NCBI GenBank assembly: GCA_001783065.1
Contig: MFQN01000007.1
Span: forward strand, 1 to 53,676
DNA from: Candidatus Magasanikbacteria bacterium RIFCSPLOWO2_12_FULL_43_12
GTDB taxonomy: Bacteria > Patescibacteriota > Patescibacteriia > Magasanikbacterales > UBA922
Reading direction: 5' to 3'
Length of the DNA stretch: 53,676 nucleotides
Below are positions 18,911-44,455 of the stretch, piece after piece. The notes beneath the pieces are model-generated. The model searched no databases. It worked only from the letters and a program-made list of their open reading frames with translations, and was not told the DNA's origin. Position 1 is the stretch's first letter; each line of letters begins with the position of its first letter. Both the position numbers and the translations under genes were made by a program.

Positions 18911-19006
18911 GTCATTGCGAGGAGCTCGCGCGACGAAGCAATCCAGCAATCGCATTAGAACGCGATAACGGTGTGGATTGCTTCGCCTGCGAAGGCTCGC
19001 AATGAC
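18911..19006. repeat. nested-palindrome element, copy A (GTCATTGCGAG...CTCGCAATGAC family)
   Basis: Outer inverted repeat GTCATTGCGAG / CTCGCAATGAC; inner inverted repeat GAAGCAATCC / GGATTGCTTC. It is intergenic, just upstream of the GT start at 19059. Confidence 0.85.
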
Positions 19007-28384: not shown

Positions 28385-28475
28385 GTCATTGCGAGCCTTC
28401 GCAGATGAAGCAATCCACACTCGTTAACCGTTGGCGACTGGATTGCTTCGTCGTCTGCAGACTCCTCGCAATGAC
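28385..28475. repeat. nested-palindrome element, copy B
   Basis: GTCATTGCGAG...GAAGCAATCC...GGATTGCTTCG...CTCGCAATGAC, lying between the sigma and anti-sigma-like genes. Confidence 0.85.
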
Positions 28476-29892: not shown

Positions 29893-29996
29893 GTCATTGC
29901 GAGAAGGCCAACATTCATTGGCCGACGAAGCAATCTACGGCAATCGCTTGTGGTTATGATGGATTGCTTCGTCGTCTGCGGACTCCTCGCAATGAC
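29893..29996. repeat. nested-palindrome element, copy C
   Basis: GTCATTGCGAG...CGACGAAGCAATC...GGATTGCTTCGTCG...CTCGCAATGAC. It is intergenic. Confidence 0.85.
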
Positions 29997-32221: not shown

Positions 32222-34957
32222 ATGGAGACCACGAAGAAGGCCGCAGTGGCCACGGTTCTGGTTCTGTTCTCGGTTCTGTGCGGGTGCTCAAACGTGACCA
32301 TGCAGTGCGAGACGGACTCGGACTGCGACGACGACAATCTGTGCACCAAAGATTCTTGCGGTGCGGGCATCTGCCACTTCGCGAAAATCAAGAAGTGCGA
32401 CAGCCAGCAGATGTGCGATGATGACGCTTGTGGCAACTCCGACGACGGCGAGTCCAACGAGGACTCGTCCCCGCCACCTGACGAACAGCCAGACGGTGAT
32501 GTATCACCAGACACTGACAGCCCACCGACCGAGCCCGGTCCGGACACTACCGACACATCCGACGCAACGTTGGACAGTTCTGACAGCACTGACGCTGGAG
32601 ACGAAGCTGATGACACTGACATCAGTCAGTCGGACCAGCCAGACACGCCTGTCGGAGACGACGGTGCGACTGGCGGCGATGACGGAACTGGTACGGACAC
32701 GAACGACAGCGAAGTTGCTGGAGACGTAAGTGTGGACGACGATGTCGGCCAGGACGCGGAAACGGTGGAAGAGACAACTCCTCTGCCTTGTATCTGCATC
32801 TCTGACGACAACCTCTGCACGGACGATTACTGCAACGACGCAGACGAATGCGTCCACGAGCCGGTTGTCGGTTGTGGTGGCGTTGATGTTGAAACGCCGA
32901 ATGCCGACGGTAGCGATACTGTTGACAACGGAGTTGACGCGTCAACCACCAACCCTGAACCAAGTCCGGACACAGCAGAAACCGACGCAACGTCTGACGG
33001 TTCTGACAGCGCGGACGGAGACAGTGGAACAATCGTTCCGCCGCCACAAGATACTGTCGTCGGAACCGATGCACCGACTACCACTCCAGACACCAGTCCG
33101 GATACCGCGGACACTGTTGACAGTGAGACTGGAGACGGTGGAACGGATGCAATCAACAATACGGACGTGACCAACGGAAATGCAGAAGTTGAAAATACTG
33201 ACGACGATGTCGGCCAGGATGCGGAAACGGTGGAAGAGACAACTCCTCTACCTTGTATCTGCATCTCTGACGACAACCTCTGTACTGACGACTTCTGCAA
33301 CGACGCAGACGAATGCGTCCATGAACCGATTGTTGACTGTTGCAACGAAGACACCGGGTGCGACGACGGAGACATTTGCAACGGAGTGGAAGCCTGCGAC
33401 GCGAACAAGTGCGTCGGTGGTGAACCACTCGTTTGCGACGACAAGAACGTCTGCACCGACGACTCATGCCACCCAACCGAGGAGTGTATCTTCACTCCCA
33501 ACTCCAACCTCTGCGACGATGGCAACGCCTGTACGATGGGCGATGTCTGTTCACAGGGCAAATGTGCATACACGGAAACGTGTGAATGCACAATGGACAC
33601 CGAGTGCGACGATGGAAGCAAGTGCACCACTGAATCGTGCGTTAGCAACAACTGCAAGTACGAAAAAGTGGAATGCAACGACTCCGACGCCTGCACCACC
33701 GACACCTGCGAACCGACAACCGGCTGTGTGTTCGCGCAGATCGTCGTTGACGACTCCAACGCCTGCACGGACGACAGTTGCGACATGGAGACAGGCGTGA
33801 TACACGTTCAAATTGCGTGCGAAGACAACGATGTCTGCACAAAAAACCTCTGTGTTGCAACAGAAGGGTGCATCTATCTGCCCATCGCCGACTGCTGCCA
33901 CGATGACGCCGAGTGCGACGACGGAGACGTTTGCAACGGAGTTGAGACCTGCGGCGACAACAAATGCGTCGCGGGGCAAAAACTCATCTGTAACGACTTC
34001 AGTGTCTGCACTACGGACTCGTGCGACCCGAGCAAAGGTTGTGTGTTTGAACCAATCAGCGGATGTTGCAAGACAGATGTTGATTGCAACGACTTCAACC
34101 AGTGTACCGGCGATGCCTGTGTCAAATCCACCGGCGAGTGCGTGCACTTCGGCATCCCAGGCGACTGCAACGATGGTGACGAGTGCACCACGAACGACGC
34201 GTGCAAGAACAGCGAGTGCGTCGGCGGTCCGGCTCTGGATTGCAACGACAGCAGTGTCTGTACCGCGGATTCGTGCGACACGGCTACCGGCTGTCAGCAT
34301 TCGGCTGTCCCAGATGGTGAGCCGTGTACTGACAATACTGTTTGCAATGGCGCAGAAATGTGCCAGAGCGGACAGTGCAAGTCCGGTGTGGCGCTCAACT
34401 GCGACGATGTGGACATCTGTACCGCAGACTCGTGCGACACGGCGGACGGCTGCAAGCATTCAGCCGAACCGGATAACGACAGCGATGGTCCATGCGACCT
34501 CGCTGACAACTGTCAATCGGTTGCGAACGCTGACCAGTCAGACATGGACAAAGACAGCGTCGGCGATGTCTGCGACCCGGACAAAGACGGTGACGGCGTG
34601 GACAACGCCGCTGACAACTGTCCTTCAACCCCAAACCCCGACCAGTCCGATATGGACAAAGACAGCGTCGGCGACGCATGCGACACTGTCAACACCTGCA
34701 ACCTTTCAACCGCTGGACTTCCAGCGTGGTACTACCAAATATCCCCGATGTGCGTCAACGGTTGCTTCGTGGGTGACGAGATGGTATGCATCAAATGCAT
34801 CTCTTCCCACAACAACTGCACGTGGAACAGCGACGGGGACTGGGTAGGACCAATATGCCAGGGCGACTGCAATGATGGTTACTCCGGCATAACAAACGAG
34901 TGTTGGCCGGGAGGGCAAATACCCCCGGTCTGCGCGGATCCATGGACCCCTCAATAA
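32222..34957 (+). CDS. GC-rich secreted/lipoprotein-like cysteine-rich repeat protein (Dictyostelium-CTDC-like repeats plus thrombospondin type-3 repeats)
   Basis: 911 aa. The N-terminus METTKKAAVATVLVLFSVLCGCSN is a signal peptide with a possible lipobox. An acidic D/T/S/P-rich region is followed by more than 20 repeats of the C.D.N.CT.D.C....GC type. Two TSP3-like units read DNCQSVANADQSDMDKDSVGDVCD and DNCPSTPNPDQSDMDKDSVGDACD. An AGGTG RBS sits 4 nt upstream of the ATG. Confidence 0.75.
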   Translation: METTKKAAVATVLVLFSVLCGCSNVTMQCETDSDCDDDNLCTKDSCGAGICHFAKIKKCDSQQMCDDDACGNSDDGESNEDSSPPPDEQPDGDVSPDTDSPPTEPGPDTTDTSDATLDSSDSTDAGDEADDTDISQSDQPDTPVGDDGATGGDDGTGTDTNDSEVAGDVSVDDDVGQDAETVEETTPLPCICISDDNLCTDDYCNDADECVHEPVVGCGGVDVETPNADGSDTVDNGVDASTTNPEPSPDTAETDATSDGSDSADGDSGTIVPPPQDTVVGTDAPTTTPDTSPDTADTVDSETGDGGTDAINNTDVTNGNAEVENTDDDVGQDAETVEETTPLPCICISDDNLCTDDFCNDADECVHEPIVDCCNEDTGCDDGDICNGVEACDANKCVGGEPLVCDDKNVCTDDSCHPTEECIFTPNSNLCDDGNACTMGDVCSQGKCAYTETCECTMDTECDDGSKCTTESCVSNNCKYEKVECNDSDACTTDTCEPTTGCVFAQIVVDDSNACTDDSCDMETGVIHVQIACEDNDVCTKNLCVATEGCIYLPIADCCHDDAECDDGDVCNGVETCGDNKCVAGQKLICNDFSVCTTDSCDPSKGCVFEPISGCCKTDVDCNDFNQCTGDACVKSTGECVHFGIPGDCNDGDECTTNDACKNSECVGGPALDCNDSSVCTADSCDTATGCQHSAVPDGEPCTDNTVCNGAEMCQSGQCKSGVALNCDDVDICTADSCDTADGCKHSAEPDNDSDGPCDLADNCQSVANADQSDMDKDSVGDVCDPDKDGDGVDNAADNCPSTPNPDQSDMDKDSVGDACDTVNTCNLSTAGLPAWYYQISPMCVNGCFVGDEMVCIKCISSHNNCTWNSDGDWVGPICQGDCNDGYSGITNECWPGGQIPPVCADPWTPQ
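32735..32863 (+). repeat. internal direct repeat, copy 1 (129 bp)
   Basis: Near-identical to 33200-33328, 465 bp downstream. It encodes DDDVGQDAETVEETTPLPCICISDDNLCTDDYCNDADECVHEP. Confidence 0.85.
33200..33328 (+). repeat. internal direct repeat, copy 2 (129 bp)
   Basis: See copy 1. There are a few mismatches (GGACGCG/GGATGCG, CTGCCT/CTACCT, TAC/TTC, CAC/CAT, GAG/GAA). Confidence 0.85.
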
Positions 34958-35246: not shown

Positions 35247-36350
35247 ATGCTCATTCTCGGCATTGAATCTTCATGCGATGATACTTCAGTCGCGCTGGTT
35301 GACGCTTCTACGCGCGGCTTTAAAATACTGGCGGAAAAAACCGCCAGCCAAATTGAAATACACAAAAAATACGGCGGGGTGGTGCCGGAAATAGCGGGGA
35401 GAATGCATGCGGAAAAAATCTTACCCCTGATTGAAGAAGCGGCGGCTAAACAACCAAAACCAGATATAATTGCCGTAACATCCGGACCGGGATTGATTAC
35501 CGGGTTGATGGTTGGAGTTGAGGCGGCGAAAACATTGTCTTATTTGTGGAATGTGCCGGTGGTTGGAGTGAATCATATTGAAGGACATATCCATTCCGTA
35601 GAAATTTTCAATTTTCAATTTTCAATTTTCAAAATTAAATATCCTGCGATAGCGTTGATTGCGAGCGGAGGGCATACGGAGTTGATTTTAATTAAAAAAC
35701 GCGGACAATACAAAAAAATCGGCGCGACGCTGGATGACGCGGCCGGGGAGTGTTTTGACAAAGTCGCAAAATTGTTAGGTTTTGATTATCCCGGCGGACC
35801 AAAAATTTCTAAATTCGCGGAAACAGGAAACCCTGATGCTATAAAATTTCCACGACCGATGCTGGATAAAAACAATTTTGATTTTAGTTTCGCTGGACTA
35901 AAAACCTCCGCGCTGTATTGGCTTCGCGACCATACCGTCATTGCGAGGAGGAGCCGAAGCGACGACGAAGCAATCCAATCATCAAATGACACTGGATCGC
36001 CGCGTCGCTACGCTCCTCGCGATGACTTATCCGTCAACGACTTCTGCGCTTCTTTTGAACAAGCCATCATTGATGTCCTCGTCGGTAAAACTCTGAAAGC
36101 TGTTGAAAAATACAAACCCAAAACCATAATATTAGGAGGTGGGGTGGCGGCAAACAAAAAATTGAGGGAGACACTCTCAAGCGCAATCAAACAACGTTCT
36201 CAAATATCCAATCTCAAATATCCAATCTCCAACTACTGTATGGACAACGCCGCCATGATCGCTGTCGCCGGATATTATCACGCAATAAAAAAAGGCTTCA
36301 CGCCGTGGCAGAAATTAAAAGCTGATCCGGAATGGGAGATAGCCCACTAA
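35247..36350 (+). CDS. tsaD: tRNA N6-adenosine threonylcarbamoyltransferase
   Basis: 367 aa. It has MLILGIESSCDDTSVALV, GVNHIEGHI, ASGGHTELI, GGPKISKFA and CMDNAAMIA. Three repeat-derived in-frame insertions are present (see findings). Confidence 0.9.
   Translation: MLILGIESSCDDTSVALVDASTRGFKILAEKTASQIEIHKKYGGVVPEIAGRMHAEKILPLIEEAAAKQPKPDIIAVTSGPGLITGLMVGVEAAKTLSYLWNVPVVGVNHIEGHIHSVEIFNFQFSIFKIKYPAIALIASGGHTELILIKKRGQYKKIGATLDDAAGECFDKVAKLLGFDYPGGPKISKFAETGNPDAIKFPRPMLDKNNFDFSFAGLKTSALYWLRDHTVIARRSRSDDEAIQSSNDTGSPRRYAPRDDLSVNDFCASFEQAIIDVLVGKTLKAVEKYKPKTIILGGGVAANKKLRETLSSAIKQRSQISNLKYPISNYCMDNAAMIAVAGYYHAIKKGFTPWQKLKADPEWEIAH
35603..35636. repeat. AATTTTC x4 heptamer array inside tsaD
   Basis: AATTTTCAATTTTCAATTTTCAATTTTCAAAATT encodes (E)IFNFQFSIFKI between the HxxxH-type metal motif and the SGGHT motif. 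Confidence 0.85.
35937..36026. repeat. nested-palindrome element, copy D (90 bp, in frame inside tsaD; right inner arm degraded)
   Basis: GTCATTGCGAGGAGGAGCCGAAGCGACGACGAAGCAATCC...CTCGCGATGAC is translated as VIARRSRSDDEAIQSSNDTGSPRRYAPRDD. Confidence 0.8.
36199..36230. repeat. CTCAAATATCCAAT x2 (plus a partial unit) array inside tsaD
   Basis: It encodes SQISNLKYPISN just before the conserved CMDNAAMIA. Confidence 0.75.
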
Positions 36351-36379: not shown

Positions 36380-37321
36380 ATGCCGTTAAAAATCATCAGC
36401 GGGTCAAGCCACAGAGAATTTACAAAAAAAATCTGCGCGCATCTTGGTATTGAAAAAACAAAAATAACTTCCAAAATCTTCAGCAACGAAAACAGGTTCG
36501 TGACAATTGACGAAGCGGTGCGCGGCGATGATGTGTTTGTGATTCAAACCCAAGCCACGCCGGTTGATTCCAACATTATAGAATTGCTGATTTTAATCCG
36601 CACATTGCGCGACGCTTCGGCCGGACGAATTACCGCGGTAATGCCCTACTTTCCTTATGCCCGTTCTGATAAAAAAGACCAGCCCAGAGTTTGCATCGCG
36701 GCGCGTTTGCTGGCGGATATGATAGAAAAAGCCGGCGCTGACCGGATTTTAACCATGGAATTGCACTCGCCGCAAATTCAGGGATTTTTCTCCGTTCCTT
36801 GCGACCATCTGCTCGCCGCGCCGGACATTATTAAATTTCTAAAACAAAATTGGGATTTAACAAACTGTGTTTTAGTCGCCGGCGACTCCGGAGCGGTAAA
36901 AATGATAAAACCTTATGTTGATTATTTGAATTTACCCACCGCGATTATGGACAAACGCCGAGAAGGCAATGATGAAACAGTAAGAATAAAAGGCGTTATC
37001 GGCGAGGTAAAAAATAAAAATGTTCTACTGCTGGATGATGAAACAACCAGCGGCGGCACGTTAGTGGAAAACGCCGAATATCTGACCAAACAAGCCGGCG
37101 CGTTGAGAGTTGACGCCTGTTTTATTCATCCGACTTTTAACGACAAAGGCGTGGAAAAATTAAATAATTCGCCAATCCAAAAATTCCTGTTTACCGATAC
37201 CATCCCGCTGAACAGCAAACCGATTAAAAACTACGAAATAATTTCTGTGGCAGAAAGATTCGCGGAAATGATAAAAAGAATTCATGATAACGAAAGCGTT
37301 AAATCATTAAATGATGTCTAA
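36380..37321 (+). CDS. prs: ribose-phosphate pyrophosphokinase
   Basis: 313 aa. It has PYFPYARSDKK and DLHSPQIQGFF-like (MELHSPQIQGFF) motifs, plus the PRPP loop LLLDDETTSGGTL. Confidence 0.9.
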   Translation: MPLKIISGSSHREFTKKICAHLGIEKTKITSKIFSNENRFVTIDEAVRGDDVFVIQTQATPVDSNIIELLILIRTLRDASAGRITAVMPYFPYARSDKKDQPRVCIAARLLADMIEKAGADRILTMELHSPQIQGFFSVPCDHLLAAPDIIKFLKQNWDLTNCVLVAGDSGAVKMIKPYVDYLNLPTAIMDKRREGNDETVRIKGVIGEVKNKNVLLLDDETTSGGTLVENAEYLTKQAGALRVDACFIHPTFNDKGVEKLNNSPIQKFLFTDTIPLNSKPIKNYEIISVAERFAEMIKRIHDNESVKSLNDV

Positions 37322-37412
37322 ATTTATGCCATACGAAAAACAGGAGTACCGCGATCCGCCGCGCGATAGCGCCGTATGAAGATGAGAGGATGAGAGAGAA
37401 TGGAGATGTATA

Positions 37413-38414
37413 TTAGTTCGCTAAAATTTTCTGCTTCAGCGCGAAACAATTACCGTGCTTCACTAATCCTAAATAAGAACGCAAAGTTCCTTCAGTCGGG
37501 TGAATTTTTATTCTCGCAAACATTCTATTTTTTGTTTTTGTACGCAGGACACGGTGGTCATTAAACAATACCCAACCAAGAAAATCCATACCAGAAGCAA
37601 TGGTTTTAATAAATAGTTTGTTTGGATGGAGTACGAGCGAAAGCTCGTCTCGCAAAAAATCTCTAATTTTTGGTATTAATTCTTCCAACCATTGTTTGTT
37701 GTGAGACAAAAACACAAAATCATCCGCATAGCGAATGTAATATCTTGCTTTTAATTTGTGTTTGATAAATTGATCAAGTTTGTTTAAGTAAATATTGGCA
37801 AAGAGTTGAGAGGTTAAATTGCCAAGTGGGAGGCCGTGTCTGTCATTGCGAGGAGTGAGGAACGAGCGACGAAGCAATCCAGTGTCGATTGGCGACTGGA
37901 TTGCTTCGCTCCCGTTGGTCGCTCGCAATGACGGATTGTTGCCTTTGTTTGAATAACTTTCAATCACCTCCTCCAATAATAAAATAATATTTCTGTCCGG
38001 AATATATTGTCTAAGAATATTTTTGAGAATATTATGGTCAATACTATCAAAAAACTTTTTAATATCGCATTTTAGTATCCAACAAGTACGAGTATGATTT
38101 TGACTAACTGCAAAAGCAAAAGAACGAAAATGATTTATTGCTCTATGCGTGCCTTTGTCTATACGGCAAGAATAAGAATCACCAATAAATGTTTTGTCAA
38201 AAAATGGGTAAAGTATTCTATAAACAGCATGGTGTAAAAGACGATCTCTGACCGAGGCCTTGTGAATGTGCCGACGTTTGGGGTCGTTGACGAAAAAACT
38301 TTCGTAACCACCGTGACTATAAGTAAAATTTGCCAAATCTTGATAAAGTGCTACAATGTTATCCATCAAGTCACGGGAGAATAATTGGACATCAGTTTTC
38401 TTTTTCTTGCCCAC
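37413..38414 (-). CDS. DGR-type reverse transcriptase (GTG start as annotated; N-terminus probably truncated; carries a 91-bp repeat insertion in frame)
   Basis: 333 aa. It has DRLLHHAVYRIL (motif 1/2 region), LKCDIKKFFDSIDH (motif 3), GLPLGNLTSQLFANIYLN (the DGR-specific [LIV]GxxxSQ motif 4) and YIRYADDFVF (YxDD). Confidence 0.85.
   Translation of the reverse strand: MGKKKKTDVQLFSRDLMDNIVALYQDLANFTYSHGGYESFFVNDPKRRHIHKASVRDRLLHHAVYRILYPFFDKTFIGDSYSCRIDKGTHRAINHFRSFAFAVSQNHTRTCWILKCDIKKFFDSIDHNILKNILRQYIPDRNIILLLEEVIESYSNKGNNPSLRATNGSEAIQSPIDTGLLRRSFLTPRNDRHGLPLGNLTSQLFANIYLNKLDQFIKHKLKARYYIRYADDFVFLSHNKQWLEELIPKIRDFLRDELSLVLHPNKLFIKTIASGMDFLGWVLFNDHRVLRTKTKNRMFARIKIHPTEGTLRSYLGLVKHGNCFALKQKILAN
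37842..37932. repeat. nested-palindrome element, copy E (in frame inside the RT gene)
   Basis: GTCATTGCGAGGAGTGAGGAACGAGCGACGAAGCAATCCAG...CTGGATTGCTTCGCT...GCTCGCAATGAC. On the minus strand it is translated as SLRATNGSEAIQSPIDTGLLRRSFLTPRND, immediately N-terminal to GLPLGNLTSQ. Confidence 0.85.
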
Positions 38415-38480
38415 AATAAAATCCTCTCAGGCCAATAACAAATTTTCTAAACCAAATTTTTCTGGTGGAGAATGAAAAAA

Positions 38481-38601
38481 CTGGCGGACGACGGCGAACG
38501 AGCAGTGCCCGTTCCAGACGCACTCGGCGGAGTCCAAGTAGAGCTTGCGGACGCCACCATTGCCGTTGACGTAAGGCACGAGACCGCGCCACACAGAACC
38601 G
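38481..38601 (-). repeat. DGR repeat in the template-repeat (TR) position, 66 bp upstream of the RT ORF
   Basis: 103/121 identical to 38965-39085 by hand alignment without gaps. It lies in no credible gene; only a 68-aa GTG-started ORF covers it. Confidence 0.65.
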
Positions 38602-38715
38602 TCACAAAATATACAAAACAGCGCCAATGCCACTGCCCCTAGAATACTCTCGGGGCTGAACCGAATTCGGAGACGTTATCTCCATACTGCTTTGTACCAA
38701 GTATTTTCATTTTTA

Positions 38716-38734
38716 ATCCTGATTAAATCAGGAT
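38716..38734 (-). other. 8-bp hairpin in the VR-TR spacer
   Basis: ATCCTGAT-TAA-ATCAGGAT. Confidence 0.5.
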
Positions 38735-38832
38735 AAAATTCAACCGCCCGAAGCCGTGTTCACTTCTTCAGCAAACAAAACCGCGGACTGTAGCGTTGAC
38801 TATCTACACTCTATTTTATCATAAAAAGAGGA

Positions 38833-38855
38833 ACCGTGCACTTCTGGTGCACGGT
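38833..38855 (-). terminator. hairpin / likely rho-independent terminator downstream of the DGR target gene
   Basis: 9-bp stem ACCGTGCAC / GTGCACGGT with loop TTCTG. On the minus strand it is followed by TTCCTCTTTTTATGAT. Confidence 0.6.
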
Positions 38856-38922
38856 ATCGGGCCGCTCCGTCGTGTGACGGAGGGATGGGAGAGAAAAGAG
38901 CGAAATCAGTGGGATAGGCCGC

Positions 38923-38947
38923 CGGACACCCGAGAACCGAGTGTCCG
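38923..38947 (-). promoter_or_regulatory. GC-rich hairpin 15-39 nt downstream of the target gene's stop codon (VR 3' end)
   Basis: CGGACAC-N11-GTGTCCG. Its position is analogous to the hairpin/cruciform that assists mutagenic homing in the Bordetella phage DGR. Confidence 0.45.
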
Positions 38948-38961
38948 AGCGACCAAGAAAC

Positions 38962-39606
38962 CTACTTGCGGACGACGGCGAACAAGCAGTGCTCGTCCCA
39001 GTCGTTCTCGGCGGAGAGCAGGTCGAGCTCGCGGCGGCCACCATCGCCGAGGACGTAAGGCACGAGAGCGCGCCACACAGAACCGAGGGCGAACACCAGA
39101 CAGTCCTTGTGCTTGTCAGGATTCTTGAGCCACCACCACAGCAACTCAACCAGAGTCGCCGAGCGATAGCCCTGCGAGTCAATGTAATCCTTGACTTCCT
39201 GCGTGGGCATCGTAGACCGGCCGAGCTCACGGAGCTTCTGCTTGATGGAGAGTGTCTCCACATGCTTCTGATCCAGATCGCCGCCATCGTACGGAAAATT
39301 CTTGCTGTTGATGTCCGAATTGCGGAACGAAACAAATCCGCACGCCGAAATCATCATTTCCAAGAACTTGTCCCACCAGTTGGCAGGAGCAGGGGCCGAC
39401 GTCGTCGGCTCCTGTCCAGCGATCAGCGCGGCCATCTTCTTGACCGTTTTGCGTCCATCCGGCTTGACCAGCTGGTGAAGACGCTCGTTGATAGCTTCCT
39501 CGTTGTCGCCGAGCAAATCCTTGAGCTCCTCCAAGAGCGCGCCGATCACAGACACAAGCCACCCGAGAACCTTCACGATCATGAACACGTTCTTCGCCTT
39601 TGGCAT
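38962..39606 (-). CDS. DGR target (variable) protein, membrane-anchored/secreted, with a C-terminal ligand-binding module carrying the VR
   Basis: The track ORF extends to 39642. The likely start is MPKAKNVFMIV (ATG at 39606) with GGAGGT 5 nt upstream. There is a hydrophobic N-terminus, GYRSATLVELLWWW is DUF1566/CLec-like, and the last 40 codons are the VR. Confidence 0.75.
   Translation of the reverse strand: MPKAKNVFMIVKVLGWLVSVIGALLEELKDLLGDNEEAINERLHQLVKPDGRKTVKKMAALIAGQEPTTSAPAPANWWDKFLEMMISACGFVSFRNSDINSKNFPYDGGDLDQKHVETLSIKQKLRELGRSTMPTQEVKDYIDSQGYRSATLVELLWWWLKNPDKHKDCLVFALGSVWRALVPYVLGDGGRRELDLLSAENDWDEHCLFAVVRK
38965..39085 (-). repeat. DGR variable repeat (VR), the last 40 sense codons of the target gene
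   Basis: It pairs with 38481-38601. The 18 mismatches all fall at codon positions 1 or 2. Confidence 0.7.
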
Positions 39607-39841
39607 GACGCACCTCCAACTTTTGGCTTGCCACTCACACAAAACACCATGTTCCGCGCCCCAGGCTTGCCAACCAAGGCCGAGATAACTCCCAGCCTTC
39701 TTTCTAACTTATTGCTAAAATAAGCCAAAAAGAAAGCTGGAAAAAATTATTTTTTTATAAGGAACTAACAAAGTATTGTACTACATTTTTAGAATCTTGT
39801 CAAGATACCTCCTTGTGCGCAATATTATAAAAGAACACCAA

Positions 39842-42800
39842 CTACTCACTCACCTCAACCCTCCCCTCTCCCGCCACTCTCTTCAACTCATCTTCAACAC
39901 CACTACTCCAATCAATCATTGCCTGCGCGCGGATAATATTGTCCGCGACTTTGACGAAAACCTGATACTCTCCCGGGTATTTTATAAATAAATTTTTTAA
40001 TTCTTGCGCCTTGTTTTTCAATTCTTCTTTACTTAAACTGATTGTTATCGCCTTATCCGGCTGATGTTGTTGAATGCTGTCGCTTGAAACACTTCCAATG
40101 GATAATTCGCGGCACACGCGCAAAGCGTTTTCTTTGGTGAGCAATAAAACTTTTTCAACAAACACTTTATTATCGCCTTTCTCTTTCGGCGTTTTGCCAA
40201 CCACGCAGACGATATTCCCCTCTTGCCACAAACCTTGCGTCTGTTCATATGTCTTGGGAAACACTAACAATTCCATCACGCCGGTAGTGTCTTGAATCGT
40301 GGCGAATATCATCACCTCGCCCTTTTTTGTGATTTTTTTCTTGATGGAATCAACAATGCCGCCGATTACCACCCAACTATCGCGCGGTGATTCCTCCACC
40401 TGATTCAATGGCACTAACGCGCGCGCCATCACCTTTTCAAAATATTCAAACGGGTGCGCGGAAACATACAGACCCAATAATTCTTTTTCCCATTTTAATT
40501 TATCGTCCAGACTCGCCGCCGAAGTATCTTTTAATTTAATTTTATTATCCAGCATTATATTTGAACCGGCAAACAAAGAATTCTGCGAAGTATTTTTGTG
40601 TTCGCGCCGTTCCCTGACAAAAGCCAATATATTCTCAACATTAAAAAGCAAAAGACCGCGGTCAAAACCAAAACAGTCCAACGCGCCGGACTTAATCAAA
40701 CTTTCCACTGATTTTTTATTTAAATCTTTATCATCAATCCGTTCCAACAGGTCTTCCAATGTCTTATACGGTCCTTGTTCTTTTCTTTCGCGATAAATCA
40801 CACCGCTGATATGTTCGCCTAAATTTTTAATCGCGTTTAAACCGAAACGGACGCGGCCAGGATCGCCGGGTTTGGATACCATGGCAAAATTACGAAAACT
40901 TTCGTTGACATCCGGCGGCAAAACTTCAATATTCATCCGCCGGCATTCGGCAACAATCTCCGCGACTTTATCGGTATCTCCTGACTCGGCCTGTAAAATC
41001 GCGGTCATATATTGCACCGGATAATGCGCTTTCATGTAAGAAGTTTGATAAGCGACGGTGCCGTAGCTTGCAGCGTGACTTTTGCCAAACCCATATGCCG
41101 CAAACGGTTCAATCATTTCCCACAACCGATTAATTTTTTCTTCCGACAAATTACCATTATCGCGGCAGCCTTGAAAAAATTTAATCTTCTGTTTTTCCAT
41201 TTCCGCGGGAATTTTCTTGCCAATCGCTTTCCTGAATTTATCCGCTTCGGTCCAACTATATCCGGCAAGTTCAATGGCGGTCAAAAGAACATCCTCTTGA
41301 TACACCAAAAGCCCGAAGGACGCTCCCAAATATTTTTCCATGCGCGGATCAAGATATTCAACCACCGCGGGATTGTGTTTACGGCGAATATATTCAGGTA
41401 TTGATTCCATTGGTCCCGGACGATACAAAGCGACCATGGCCATGATATCATCAATCGTCGTCGGTTTAAGTTCTTTCAACCAGCGCGTCATACCGGAACC
41501 ACCAAGTTGAAATGTGCCCATGGTTTCCCCTCGCGCGAGCATTTCAAATGTTTCTTTATCATCAAAAGGCAGTTTATAAATATCAATTTTTTCGCCGGTG
41601 GTTTTTTCCACGAATTCAACCGCTTTTCCCAAAATAGAAAGGTTGCGTATGCCCAAAAAGTCCATCTTTAACAAACCGGCTGCTTCCACCGCGTGCATTT
41701 CATATTGAGTAATTGTTTTTTCACCGCCGGTTTCTTTTTGCACCGGGGTAAAATCAGTTAATCGCGTTGGCGCGATAACCACGCCCGCGGCATGGATGGA
41801 AGTATGGCGCGCGCAACCCTCAACTTTTCTGGCCAAATCCAACAAAATTTTTACTTCCGGTTTTGAACCATAAAGTTTTTTTAAATCCGGCTCTTCAATC
41901 ATAGCGCGATCAATCGTCATGTGAAAACCCTGCGAACCCATCGGAATTAGTTTAGCCACCTGATCGCAAAAACTATAGGAATATCCGAGCGCTCGGCCAA
42001 CATCACGCACGCTCGCCCGCGCCGCCATGGTTCCGAAAGTGATAATCTGCGCCACTTTTTCTTTGCCATATTTATTGGTAACATAATCAATCATCTCATC
42101 GCGGCGATCATCGGCAAAATCCGTATCAATATCCGGCGGACTTGGACGAAACGGATTCAAAAAACGTTCAAACGGCAGTTTAAATCTGATCGGATCAACA
42201 GTTGTGATTCCCATTACGTAGGAAACCAAAGAACCGGCGGCCGAACCTCTGGTGGTTTCCACAATGCCGTGCTCCTTGGCATAATTGACATAGTCAGCCA
42301 CGCAAAGAAAATACGGCGAGTAGCCTTTCTCTCTAATAATTTTTAATTCATACTCCGCGCGGGTTTTAACTTCTTCGGTTATTGGCTGATAATAATCCCC
42401 GATTCTGGCATTAACAATTTCTTCCATCACTTCCGACGCGCTTTTCCCGATTGGTAATTCAACCGGCGCGAAATGCCAAGCGTTTAAATTGATTTCTAAA
42501 TTTATTCTTTCCGCTATTTTGACCGTGTTTTCAATCGCCTCCGGCACATGGCGAAAACGAGAAATAATATCTTTAGCGGAATTTAAAGAACGGTCCACCT
42601 GCCGAAAATCCTCGCGATTCATCTGACCGACTTTCCAGCCCTCGCGGATGCAGGTTAAAATATCTTGCGCTTCCGCGTCATCAGTTTCCAAATAATGAAC
42701 GTCGCGCGTTACTACCATTGGAATGCTGGTATCTTTAGATAATTGAATAATTTTTGTATTCACATCCAGCTGTCCTTCAATCGCCGGATGATCTTGCAGT

Positions 42801-44342: not shown

Positions 44343-44455
44343 GTCATTGCGAGGAGGAGCTCGCGCGATCCCTCTCATTCACTCGGGACAGGCTCCGCAA
44401 TCCAGTCGCCAATTGACGATGGATTGCTTCGCTCCCTTGGGTCGCTCGCAATGAC
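44343..44455. repeat. nested-palindrome element, copy F (longest, 113 bp)
   Basis: CTGTCATTGCGAGGAGGAGCTCGCGCG...GGATTGCTTCGCTCC...GCTCGCAATGACAG. It is intergenic between mtnP and apt. Confidence 0.85.

Follow-up and report, generated by a model that had tools for sequence, protein, structure and literature searches.

Canonical diversity-generating retroelements (DGRs), exemplified by BPP-1 and by those of the candidate-phyla-radiation (CPR) lineage (PMC5758913), have a reverse transcriptase (RT) of the DGR clade, a template repeat (TR) and a variable repeat (VR) of ~120 nt, of which the VR lies at the 3′ end of a target gene, an AAC design at codon positions 1 and 2, a GC hairpin after the VR, and a C-type-lectin-like target domain. 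All of these are found, the lectin-like domain as a prediction from weak structural matches, in a locus on the minus strand of the 53,676-nt stretch of DNA analysed here (the window), positions 1 to 53,676 of contig MFQN01000007.1 (assembly GCA_001783065.1) of Candidatus Magasanikbacteria bacterium RIFCSPLOWO2_12_FULL_43_12, an uncultured CPR bacterium, and relatives of this locus carry avd and adenine-only mismatches in the canonical manner. However, the window locus differs from canonical DGRs in that 6/18 TR/VR mismatches are at TR adenines, the VR is invariant, and the TR is non-A at positions where the TRs of relatives have A; deletion has taken avd, the post-TR stem-loop and the N-terminus of the RT, and there is a stop codon in the RT frame. 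The locus is probably, if without great assurance, an adenine-specific DGR of the ordinary CPR type that was recently disabled and in which the TR and the adjacent VR are no longer a template–product pair. The divergence between the two repeats represents the erosion of template adenines together with a stale VR, that is, the decay of a known system and not a new mutagenesis spectrum.

Two other groups of described elements are similar in part. The degenerate DGRs of Thiohalocapsa PB-PSB1 also have machinery lost or pseudogenised beside TR and VR, and some of their targets are invariant, but their degenerate VRs agree with a remote TR at every non-adenine position, indicating templating in trans (PMC10907252), whereas in the window it is the TR that has changed, so that TR and adjacent VR differ at 12 non-adenine sites. 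Non-A-to-N substitutions are reported for 23% of 372 DGRs, with a maximum of 11 in one target and frequently in CPR, and the survey ascribes them to RT infidelity, integration errors or independent mutation (PMC5758913). The window is likewise a CPR DGR with TR/VR differences at non-A TR positions, although its count of 12 exceeds the survey maximum and its non-A bases replace former TR adenines. Because relatives show A where the window TR has non-A, it is the TR that has changed rather than the spectrum. In BPP-1 constructs made by Doulatov and co-workers in 2004, replacement of the TR element IMH* by IMH (initiation of mutagenic homing) reportedly turns the TR into a recipient of mutagenic homing. 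Mutagenised cDNA in the TR is what the window TR looks like; however, the constructs were engineered, whereas the window TR is without an IMH-type hairpin and its self-homing would be a rare natural side reaction.

Repeat divergence and adenine loss from the template

The two minus-strand repeats (38601..38481 and 39085..38965) align without gaps with 103/121 identities and 18 mismatches (85% identity), and a repeat search extends the pair to 122 nt (38480-38601 / 38964-39085) with a start-to-start spacing of 484. In the target open reading frame (ORF) 11 mismatches are at first, seven at second and none at third codon positions ((2/3)^18 = 6.8e-4), and 14 codons are affected with TTG/CTG as the sole silent change. 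The bases at the mismatches are A6, T5, G5 and C2 in the RT-proximal copy and C5, G5, A5 and T3 in the target copy. No third copy is present in the window when both invariant ends are used as queries with <=3 mismatches. The first-pass annotation, made from the sequence alone, had reported the 103/121 identity with 18 mismatches, a chance of ~7e-4 for the lack of third-position mismatches, the 14 affected codons with one silent change, invariant repeat ends, and A at 6/18 and 5/18 of the sites in the RT-proximal and target copies respectively, all of which were reproduced on recomputation. Its view that this is a DGR footprint rather than neutral drift, and that neither copy is a clean template for the other, is supported, and the AAC-rich sequence that it reconstructed is a close match to the TRs of relatives. 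It overlooked that the element has been disabled, with avd and the 5′ end of the RT deleted and a stop in place of a conserved Trp codon, and that the 18 mismatches include three ordinary point changes and one TR/VR boundary difference common to the family.

A target-alignment search of metagenomes and genomes yielded 70 related loci (cited by L numbers, and their proteins by P numbers, where needed). In the 15 related TR/VR pairs that could be scored, L017 included, 261/279 mismatches (93.5%, minimum 86%) are at TR adenines, and the family is one of canonical adenine-specific DGRs. L017, the RT of which is 68% identical to that of the window, has a 122-nt repeat, the same 484-nt spacing, 17/17 mismatches at A, and a bAvd gene between TR and RT. 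Against the family background, the 6/18 (33%) of window mismatches at adenines of the RT-proximal copy have P ~7e-11.

The TRs of relatives can be placed in codon register with the window repeat (L022 GSVWRELVPYVNGNGSNRKLNLNTVANTWNRNYTFAAVSQ; L088 GSVWAGQTPYVNGNGDNRNLNLNTLANDWDSNYAFAAVRQ), and at codons 203, 207, 209, 213, 214 and 217 they have AAC, AAT or another A-containing codon where the window TR has GTC, TAC, GAC, TGC, GTC and GGG. In the closest lineages (L019, L012, L011, L013) these codons are hypervariable in the orthologous VRs. Variation in orthologous VRs is at the same codon positions. The 18 mismatches can accordingly be divided into six canonical A-to-N differences at TR adenines, eight eroded TR adenines, replaced by G, T or C (at four of these the VR has kept A), two point changes in the VR scaffold (GGT>GCT at codon 192 and TCG>TTG at codon 220), one silent TR change (CTG>TTG at codon 208) and the normal CAG/AAG boundary. 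Up to three further TR adenines may have been eroded, and 11 adenines are retained in variable codons.

Relative to the inferred ancestor, the TR is changed at 8/22 A sites and at 1/98 non-A sites (Fisher P = 3e-6). Scaffold and third positions are 95–98% conserved even in comparison with lineages whose genes are 82–86% identical, so that ordinary mutation cannot supply eight changes and an adenine-specific process is required. The adjacent VR was not written from the present TR, because it keeps A at 4/8 eroded sites and the repeats disagree at 12 sites that are non-A in the TR. Two further arguments were weakened or discarded. The absence of third-position differences is weakened as a proof of recency, since scaffold and third positions are conserved even in diverged lineages, and the bases that TR and VR share at codons 202, 211 and 218 (3/11) are within the background of 0–4 and are no evidence of templating. 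The contigs of the closest lineages L012, L019 and L018 end before the TR.

The divergence of the repeats is not an assembly artefact, since both copies are identical across independent assemblies. The RT protein is read on 13 contigs and the identical target protein on 19, and the contigs with the locus come from MEGAHIT and other assemblers (including JGI 3300025317 and the NCBI metagenome-assembled genome GCA_001782965.1). There are 0/2230 nt differences from the target start to the RT end among 10 loci fetched via the target protein (from two or more assemblers), and the 10 loci fetched via RT have the same TR and VR; these sets overlap, and their union is 14 distinct contigs of the 19 with the identical target protein. 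A mis-assembled RT-proximal copy, envisaged at first pass, is contradicted by the agreement of both copies across assemblers, the JGI metagenome and the NCBI genome. In these 14/14 distinct contigs the VR is monomorphic at the consensus level and no ongoing diversification is seen.

Judged by its sequence context, the RT-proximal copy is the true TR. Its 3′ boundary is CAG, as in the L088 and L022 TRs, rather than the AAG of the VR; its 5′ flank is not target-gene sequence and is of the TR type found in the same two loci; and it is followed by the CATTCTCC arm of the post-TR stem-loop of the family. DNA folding finds no equivalent after the TR of the GC-rich hairpin that follows the VR. The VR hairpin itself folds as DNA with -15.8 kcal/mol (z = -4.0; 0/200 shuffles equally good), corresponds to the post-VR hairpin with a role in BPP-1 (PMC3240598), and has a similar counterpart 3′ of the L017 VR. 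It is preceded by the GC-rich VR end TTCGCCGTCGTCCGC, and the VR recipient elements are thus present. The copy is a TR and not a VR relic because of the upstream RNA described below, the TR flanks, the CAG boundary, the stem-loop arm and the lack of a recipient hairpin; of the two forms of an explanation offered at first pass, the eroded TR therefore stands and the VR relic of a truncated second target does not, the latter being at odds with the TR-type flanks, the upstream RNA and the CAG boundary.

A conserved structured RNA lies directly 5′ of the TR, with a 12-bp closing stem around two hairpins. In an alignment of 13 loci (A2), 94.4% of cells are paired over 25 base pairs, as against 37–55% with slid partners, and 17/25 pairs have compensatory changes; 0/500 shuffles reach the observed values. 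A covariance model places this RNA beside the TR in every TR-bearing locus, including four outside the model-building set, with a single match in the window (126 bits); it is also present at L017:1621-1754, L076:4597-4731, L088:4859-5036, L015:189-321 and in 14 other loci. Two matches are without a detected TR repeat: L051 (76 bits), where the contig ends ~110 nt past the match, and a weak match in L063 (31.7 bits). There is no covariance-model match in the orphan-target loci examined (L011, L013, L014, L090), and an Rfam scan of 37300-39900 left the RNA unmatched and gave a chance miRNA match only. The RNA may be a candidate for the upstream segment required in DGR reverse transcription, and constitutes a separate lead that arose as a by-product of the DGR analysis.

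Loss of the retroelement machinery

The family layout is target gene, VR and hairpin, a spacer with the structured RNA, TR, stem-loop, avd on the opposite strand, and RT. In all family loci that reach past the TR (13/13) avd (bAvd) is on the opposite strand directly after a strong GC stem-loop, and a strong stem-loop follows the TR in every family locus with sequence there. In the window the gap between TR and the RT ORF is 66 nt, and the 5′ arm and loop of the stem-loop (~38452-38480) are joined at ~38449-38455 to RT codons ~14–20 (LENLLLA, 38430-38450). By comparison of the junction with related loci, one deletion took avd, the 3′ arm of the stem-loop and RT codons 1–13 (Table 1); the downstream stem-loop has lost its 3′ arm while the upstream RNA is intact. 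In the syntenic locus L016 the start of avd is visible and overlaps the RT start head-to-head, and no Avd is detectable in the 53.7-kb window by tblastn or with a family hidden Markov model (best E = 0.5). Avd is required for BPP-1 homing (PMC12875486, PMC5703328), and the post-TR stem-loop has been proposed as the Avd-binding element in DGRs, including those of CPR (bioRxiv 10.1101/2023.10.23.563531).

RT homologues all start with MKIQLxHxYxDIIxLENLLLAW, whereas the window reads ...FGLENLLLA*EDFIVGKKKK. The TGA at the conserved Trp lies about nine codons past the deletion junction and is present in all fetched contigs; it is a stop in this organism, because other long window genes read through under table 11. 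The remaining ORF matches Pfam RVT_1 (1.2e-21) with YADD and GLPLGNLTSQ intact, and has more than 8000 homologues in CPR, thousands of them 58–77% identical (Magasanikbacteria, Falkowbacteria and others). The RT keeps 133/135 highly conserved columns, one of the two deviations being the stop codon, and the mean deviation of homologues is 2.06. Since the RT core is as conserved as in functional relatives, the disabling is recent. Taken together, the element is a degenerate DGR locus with lost machinery, an RT truncated and interrupted by a stop, a truncated stem-loop and a monomorphic VR. Target-family genes with a hairpin and terminator but no cassette exist (L011, L013, L014), and the window looks like an intermediate of cassette loss for that reason.

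Two details of these junctions stand apart. The avd (minus) and RT (plus) genes of L017 (2290-2315) and L016 (40-75) are divergent, and their 5′ coding ends overlap antisense by ~20 nt or more. In the window the post-deletion TR frame (38427-38633, minus strand) continues in frame into the RT remnant (…FAVVRQFFHSPPEKFGLENLLLA*), so that only the TGA prevents a TR–RT fusion ORF; this is probably a coincidence.

Table 1. Features of the window locus, in order along the minus strand.
Feature	Coordinates	Strand	Remarks
DGR target gene	38962..39606	-	214 aa from ATG 39606, or 226 aa from TTG 39642; from the ORF list
Variable repeat (VR)	38965..39085	-	Last 40 codons of the target gene; same in all assemblies examined
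GC-rich hairpin/cruciform-forming inverted repeat	38917..38954	-	Starts 7 nt past the target stop; canonical VR recipient element
Terminator-like hairpin and T-run after the target gene	38833..38855	-	Consensus scan only
Conserved structured RNA, ~134 nt, directly 5′ of the TR	38602..38735	-	Core ~38611-38697; intact in the window
Template repeat (TR), A-eroded	38481..38601	-	14 A in total; non-A at 8 positions that are A in the TRs of relatives
Deletion scar	38430..38480	-	Junction comparison with L017, L015 and L016
TGA stop at conserved Trp (LENLLLAW)	38427..38429	-	Trp in >93% of 47 aligned RT homologues
DGR-type reverse transcriptase ORF	37413..38414	-	333 aa from an internal GTG; ~26 conserved N-terminal residues gone
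In-frame palindromic repeat in the RT ORF, between ESYS and GLPLGNLTSQ	37842..37932	-	Inverted repeat I1

History of the eroded template

When the 68-aa TR frame was used as query in an exhaustive HMMER search, canonical N-rich TR frames were recovered (P0133, P0135, P0136 and others), with P0132 as the top match. P0132 is a distant member of the target family encoded on L090, a 6-kb, 40%-GC, phage-like contig from another sample. The VR-like segment of L090 has 83.8% DNA identity to the window TR as against 76% to the window VR; it carries the derived TR bases at 7/8 eroded sites (GTC 203, GAC 209, TGC 213, GTC 214, GGG 217), and its differences from the TR are mainly at TR adenines (AAT>TGT, AAG>TGG, AAC>CTC and others). 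Of the 11 TR sites that had A ancestrally and are now non-A, L090 matches seven and ten other VRs match 0–4 (P ~1e-3; ~0.01 corrected for the 10–15 VRs examined). As L090 carries 7/8 derived bases, a partly eroded version of the TR probably once templated another target, and on this comparison the eroded bases are probably not a private accident of the window genome. The first-pass suggestion that a cognate VR lies elsewhere is partly supported by this match to 7/8 unusual TR bases, although L090 belongs to a different sample and genome. L090 is itself a fossil because the 3′ end of its VR has decayed (GTT ATT AAG AAA, with loss of the GC-rich end and stop).

Orphan or fossil VR genes are also found at L011:4800-5240, L013:2236-2706, L014:1864-1985 and in L023, as in L090 with no TR, avd or RT nearby, and several orphan target-family genes retain the post-VR hairpin and terminator. 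Three stale VRs (window, L090 and L023) have TTG at codon 220 where TRs and active-looking VRs have TCG, and this TTG may be an adaptive change made after DGR activity ended. Pattern scans for the repeat scaffold in genome_contigs and metagenome_contigs gave no match and are unreliable as negatives, because the locus-bearing JGI contig Ga0209541_10011344 exists and another contig of the same metagenome came from that collection. Scans of viral_contigs for the repeat scaffold and P0132 gave no match, and a word-index protein search with the TR ORF also gave none but missed known relatives too, and is hence uninformative.

The favoured history, a disabled DGR with an eroded TR, could have proceeded as follows. 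The VR would have been last written from an older AAC-rich TR and frozen since, while the TR would have lost adenines when the element's own adenine-mutagenised cDNA was written back into TR DNA rather than the VR, by self-homing or cDNA-templated repair. Erosion probably occurred in at least two steps, with an intermediate TR that would still have templated another family target of the L090 type, and could have taken place at the window locus or in a related cassette later recombined in. Whether stepwise erosion occurred in situ in a multi-target lineage or an eroded cassette was imported, canonical adenine mutagenesis suffices. In BPP-1 directionality is set by IMH and the stem-loop (PMC5703328), and hairpin-independent homing occurs at low frequency (PMC3240598, PMC12875486).

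Several points weigh against this history. Self-homing would be a rare hairpin-independent event, because the TR has no recipient hairpin and IMH and the stem-loop enforce directionality. The ancestral states rest on distant TRs (35–43% target identity) and on VR hypervariability. L090 was found using the TR itself as query, which introduces selection bias, and its significance is modest after correction; the TTG at codon 220 of L090 agrees with the window VR and not with the TR, so that the history is not cleanly tree-like. All assemblies are near-clonal, with 0–13 SNPs per 13 kb outside the recombinant tsaD end, such that the ‘frozen’ VR is a shallow-depth, consensus-level statement. Translation from the internal GTG, with GAGAGGA upstream of it, could still yield a truncated RT. 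Finally, 53.7 kb of the genome is covered, and avd, a second DGR or a matching remote target may lie elsewhere.

The strongest competing explanation, although an unlikely one, is cassette replacement, in which a related TR(-avd)-RT module with an A-poor TR recombined beside a VR templated by another AAC-rich TR, and the avd/RT deletion may go back to the same illegitimate event. In its favour, the flanks are conserved as well as recombinogenic, and the spacer RNA element and RT are common to the loci. The RT of L015 is 77% identical, and this locus has a homologous spacer and an unrelated TR next to the 3′ end of a family-type gene. The L018 mosaic allele (100% identical downstream of ~39100, 75–85% upstream), the breaks or variation in contigs at 39472-39477, and the presence of TR derived bases in the VR of a different phage-like 40%-GC contig are in keeping with such exchange, and codon 220 (TCG in the TR; TTG in the VR, L090 and L023) is a non-A difference unexplained by erosion alone. 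However, TR and VR are the same at every third position and at 85/88 scaffold sites and have the 484-nt family spacing, and since these match, any replacement donor would have to be very close. No such locus was found, and the donor would still need adenine-specific erosion, which adds a step and leaves the mechanism unchanged. L015 (1-460) is also the closest RT relative, with homologous spacer, avd and RT and an AAC-rich TR of unrelated sequence (VDGNRLIAGNFDDDGANCDNWNGNANDNVGFF); because this unrelated TR is in a homologous context, TR modules seem exchangeable within the conserved cassette.

It is decidedly improbable that the A-poor TR, a GTG-started truncated RT and an Avd supplied from elsewhere diversify a remote target of the L090 type while selection holds the adjacent VR. 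The upstream RNA element and RT core are intact, the TR keeps 11 adenines in variable codons, an L090-type VR matches its non-A bases, GAGAGGA precedes the GTG start, and trans-acting or remote targets are known in other DGRs (PMC5758913, PMC10907252). Against this, the post-TR stem-loop, a proposed Avd-binding element, is destroyed, the RT lacks 26 conserved residues and there is no avd within 53.7 kb; L090 comes from another sample and is itself a fossil with a decayed VR 3′ end, and an L090-type gene in the window organism would be hypothetical.

The chance is smaller still that the DGR remains active with a spectrum not restricted to adenine, such that the present TR templates the present VR, a non-canonical spectrum having also been proposed at first pass. 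Non-A-to-N substitutions do occur in 23% of DGRs, often several in CPR (PMC5758913), and the RT catalytic core is intact. However, 15/15 related pairs are 86–100% adenine-specific; the RT core is conserved as in relatives, differing at just 2/135 conserved columns, one of them the stop codon; the non-A mismatches coincide with adenines in the TRs of relatives; the cassette is without avd, the post-TR stem-loop and the RT N-terminus; and the VR is invariant in 14 distinct contigs. Least credible of all is that the RT-proximal copy is what remains of a truncated second target, namely its VR, the real TR having been deleted along with avd: VR-versus-VR pairs do give such a pattern (A13/G8/T6/C3 vs T9/G9/A7/C5 in the L026 tandem targets) and the copy sits in an open 68-aa frame, but the RNA element that precedes it is one found with TRs and not after orphan targets, its 5′ flank does not consist of target-gene sequence, its CAG 3′ boundary and its downstream CATTCTCC stem-loop arm are of the TR type, it is without a recipient hairpin, and the VR-to-copy spacing equals the L017 VR–TR spacing. 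The L026 pair (1090-1803 and 2114-2728) consists of tandem paralogous targets whose VRs differ non-adenine-specifically, on a 4-kb contig with no TR, and serves as a control for VR-versus-VR comparison.

As a recently disabled DGR, the locus provides a datable intermediate of decay, between intact relatives and orphan targets, in which avd and the RT start are deleted, the TR is eroded and the VR is frozen. Surveys and detection tools treat non-adenine TR/VR mismatches as noise or as a relaxed RT spectrum. Comparative evidence from the window points to a third cause, the loss of TR adenines at hypervariable codons, by which TR and VR come to be two independent products of a single ancestral template; the locus is a natural example of TR erosion and a caution against labelling such TR/VR pairs ‘non-canonical DGRs’. 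More tentatively, and with the balance against it, TR adenine erosion could be a regular stepwise DGR process in which cDNA write-back progressively hard-wires variable codons. If so, partly eroded TRs would stay functional and pass fixed residues to targets, as the L090 VR suggests, and the ratchet would end with an adenine-poor template, a stale VR and loss of avd and RT, giving DGRs an intrinsic lifespan. If general, it would explain the excess of non-A-to-N differences in CPR DGRs without a relaxed RT spectrum.

The target gene and other repeats in the window

The target has 11 homologues with hypervariable C-termini. Its N-terminal part is predicted by AlphaFold, at low confidence, to form helices, while C-terminal residues ~100–226 have pLDDT above 90. 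The top Foldseek matches of the C-terminal domain in the PDB are nearly all C-type lectin domains, albeit weak (E 0.03–0.9, TM 0.4–0.5), and the predicted domain may resemble a C-type lectin.

Assembly breaks and variation form a hotspot in the N-terminal half of the target gene (39100-39642, and in particular 39472-39477), with a SNP in L001 at 39472 (Q>H), a run of N in L007 at 39477 and the end of L010 at 39477. The mosaic allele of L018 has 100% identity to the window downstream of ~39100 and 75–85% upstream. The hotspot suggests that recombining target alleles co-exist with one common VR. The L018 protein P0002 (88% identical, with an identical VR) was considered as a sign of long-term VR conservation and rejected, as this contig is a low-coverage mosaic that is 100% identical over VR and spacer.

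The target gene (38962-39642) is 56–62% GC with flanks of ~42%, and a gene for a 911-aa Cys/Asp-rich repeat protein (32222-34957) is 55–61% GC against a background of ~40–45%; the RT gene is 30–40%. This contrast could reflect foreign origin or special compositional constraints on the two genes.

The window contains at least six complete copies of a palindrome of ~80–115 nt (18911-19006, 28385-28475, 29893-29996, 35937-36026, 37842-37932 and 44343-44455) with termini GTCATTGCGAG...CTCGCAATGAC, two of which are in frame within genes (tsaD, 35937-36026; RT, 37842-37932). The RT copy was considered as evidence of inactivation and rejected; homologous RTs carry variable inserts in the same loop, and the insert is thus tolerated. 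Some of these inserts have similar peptide motifs (SLRA...LLRRS).

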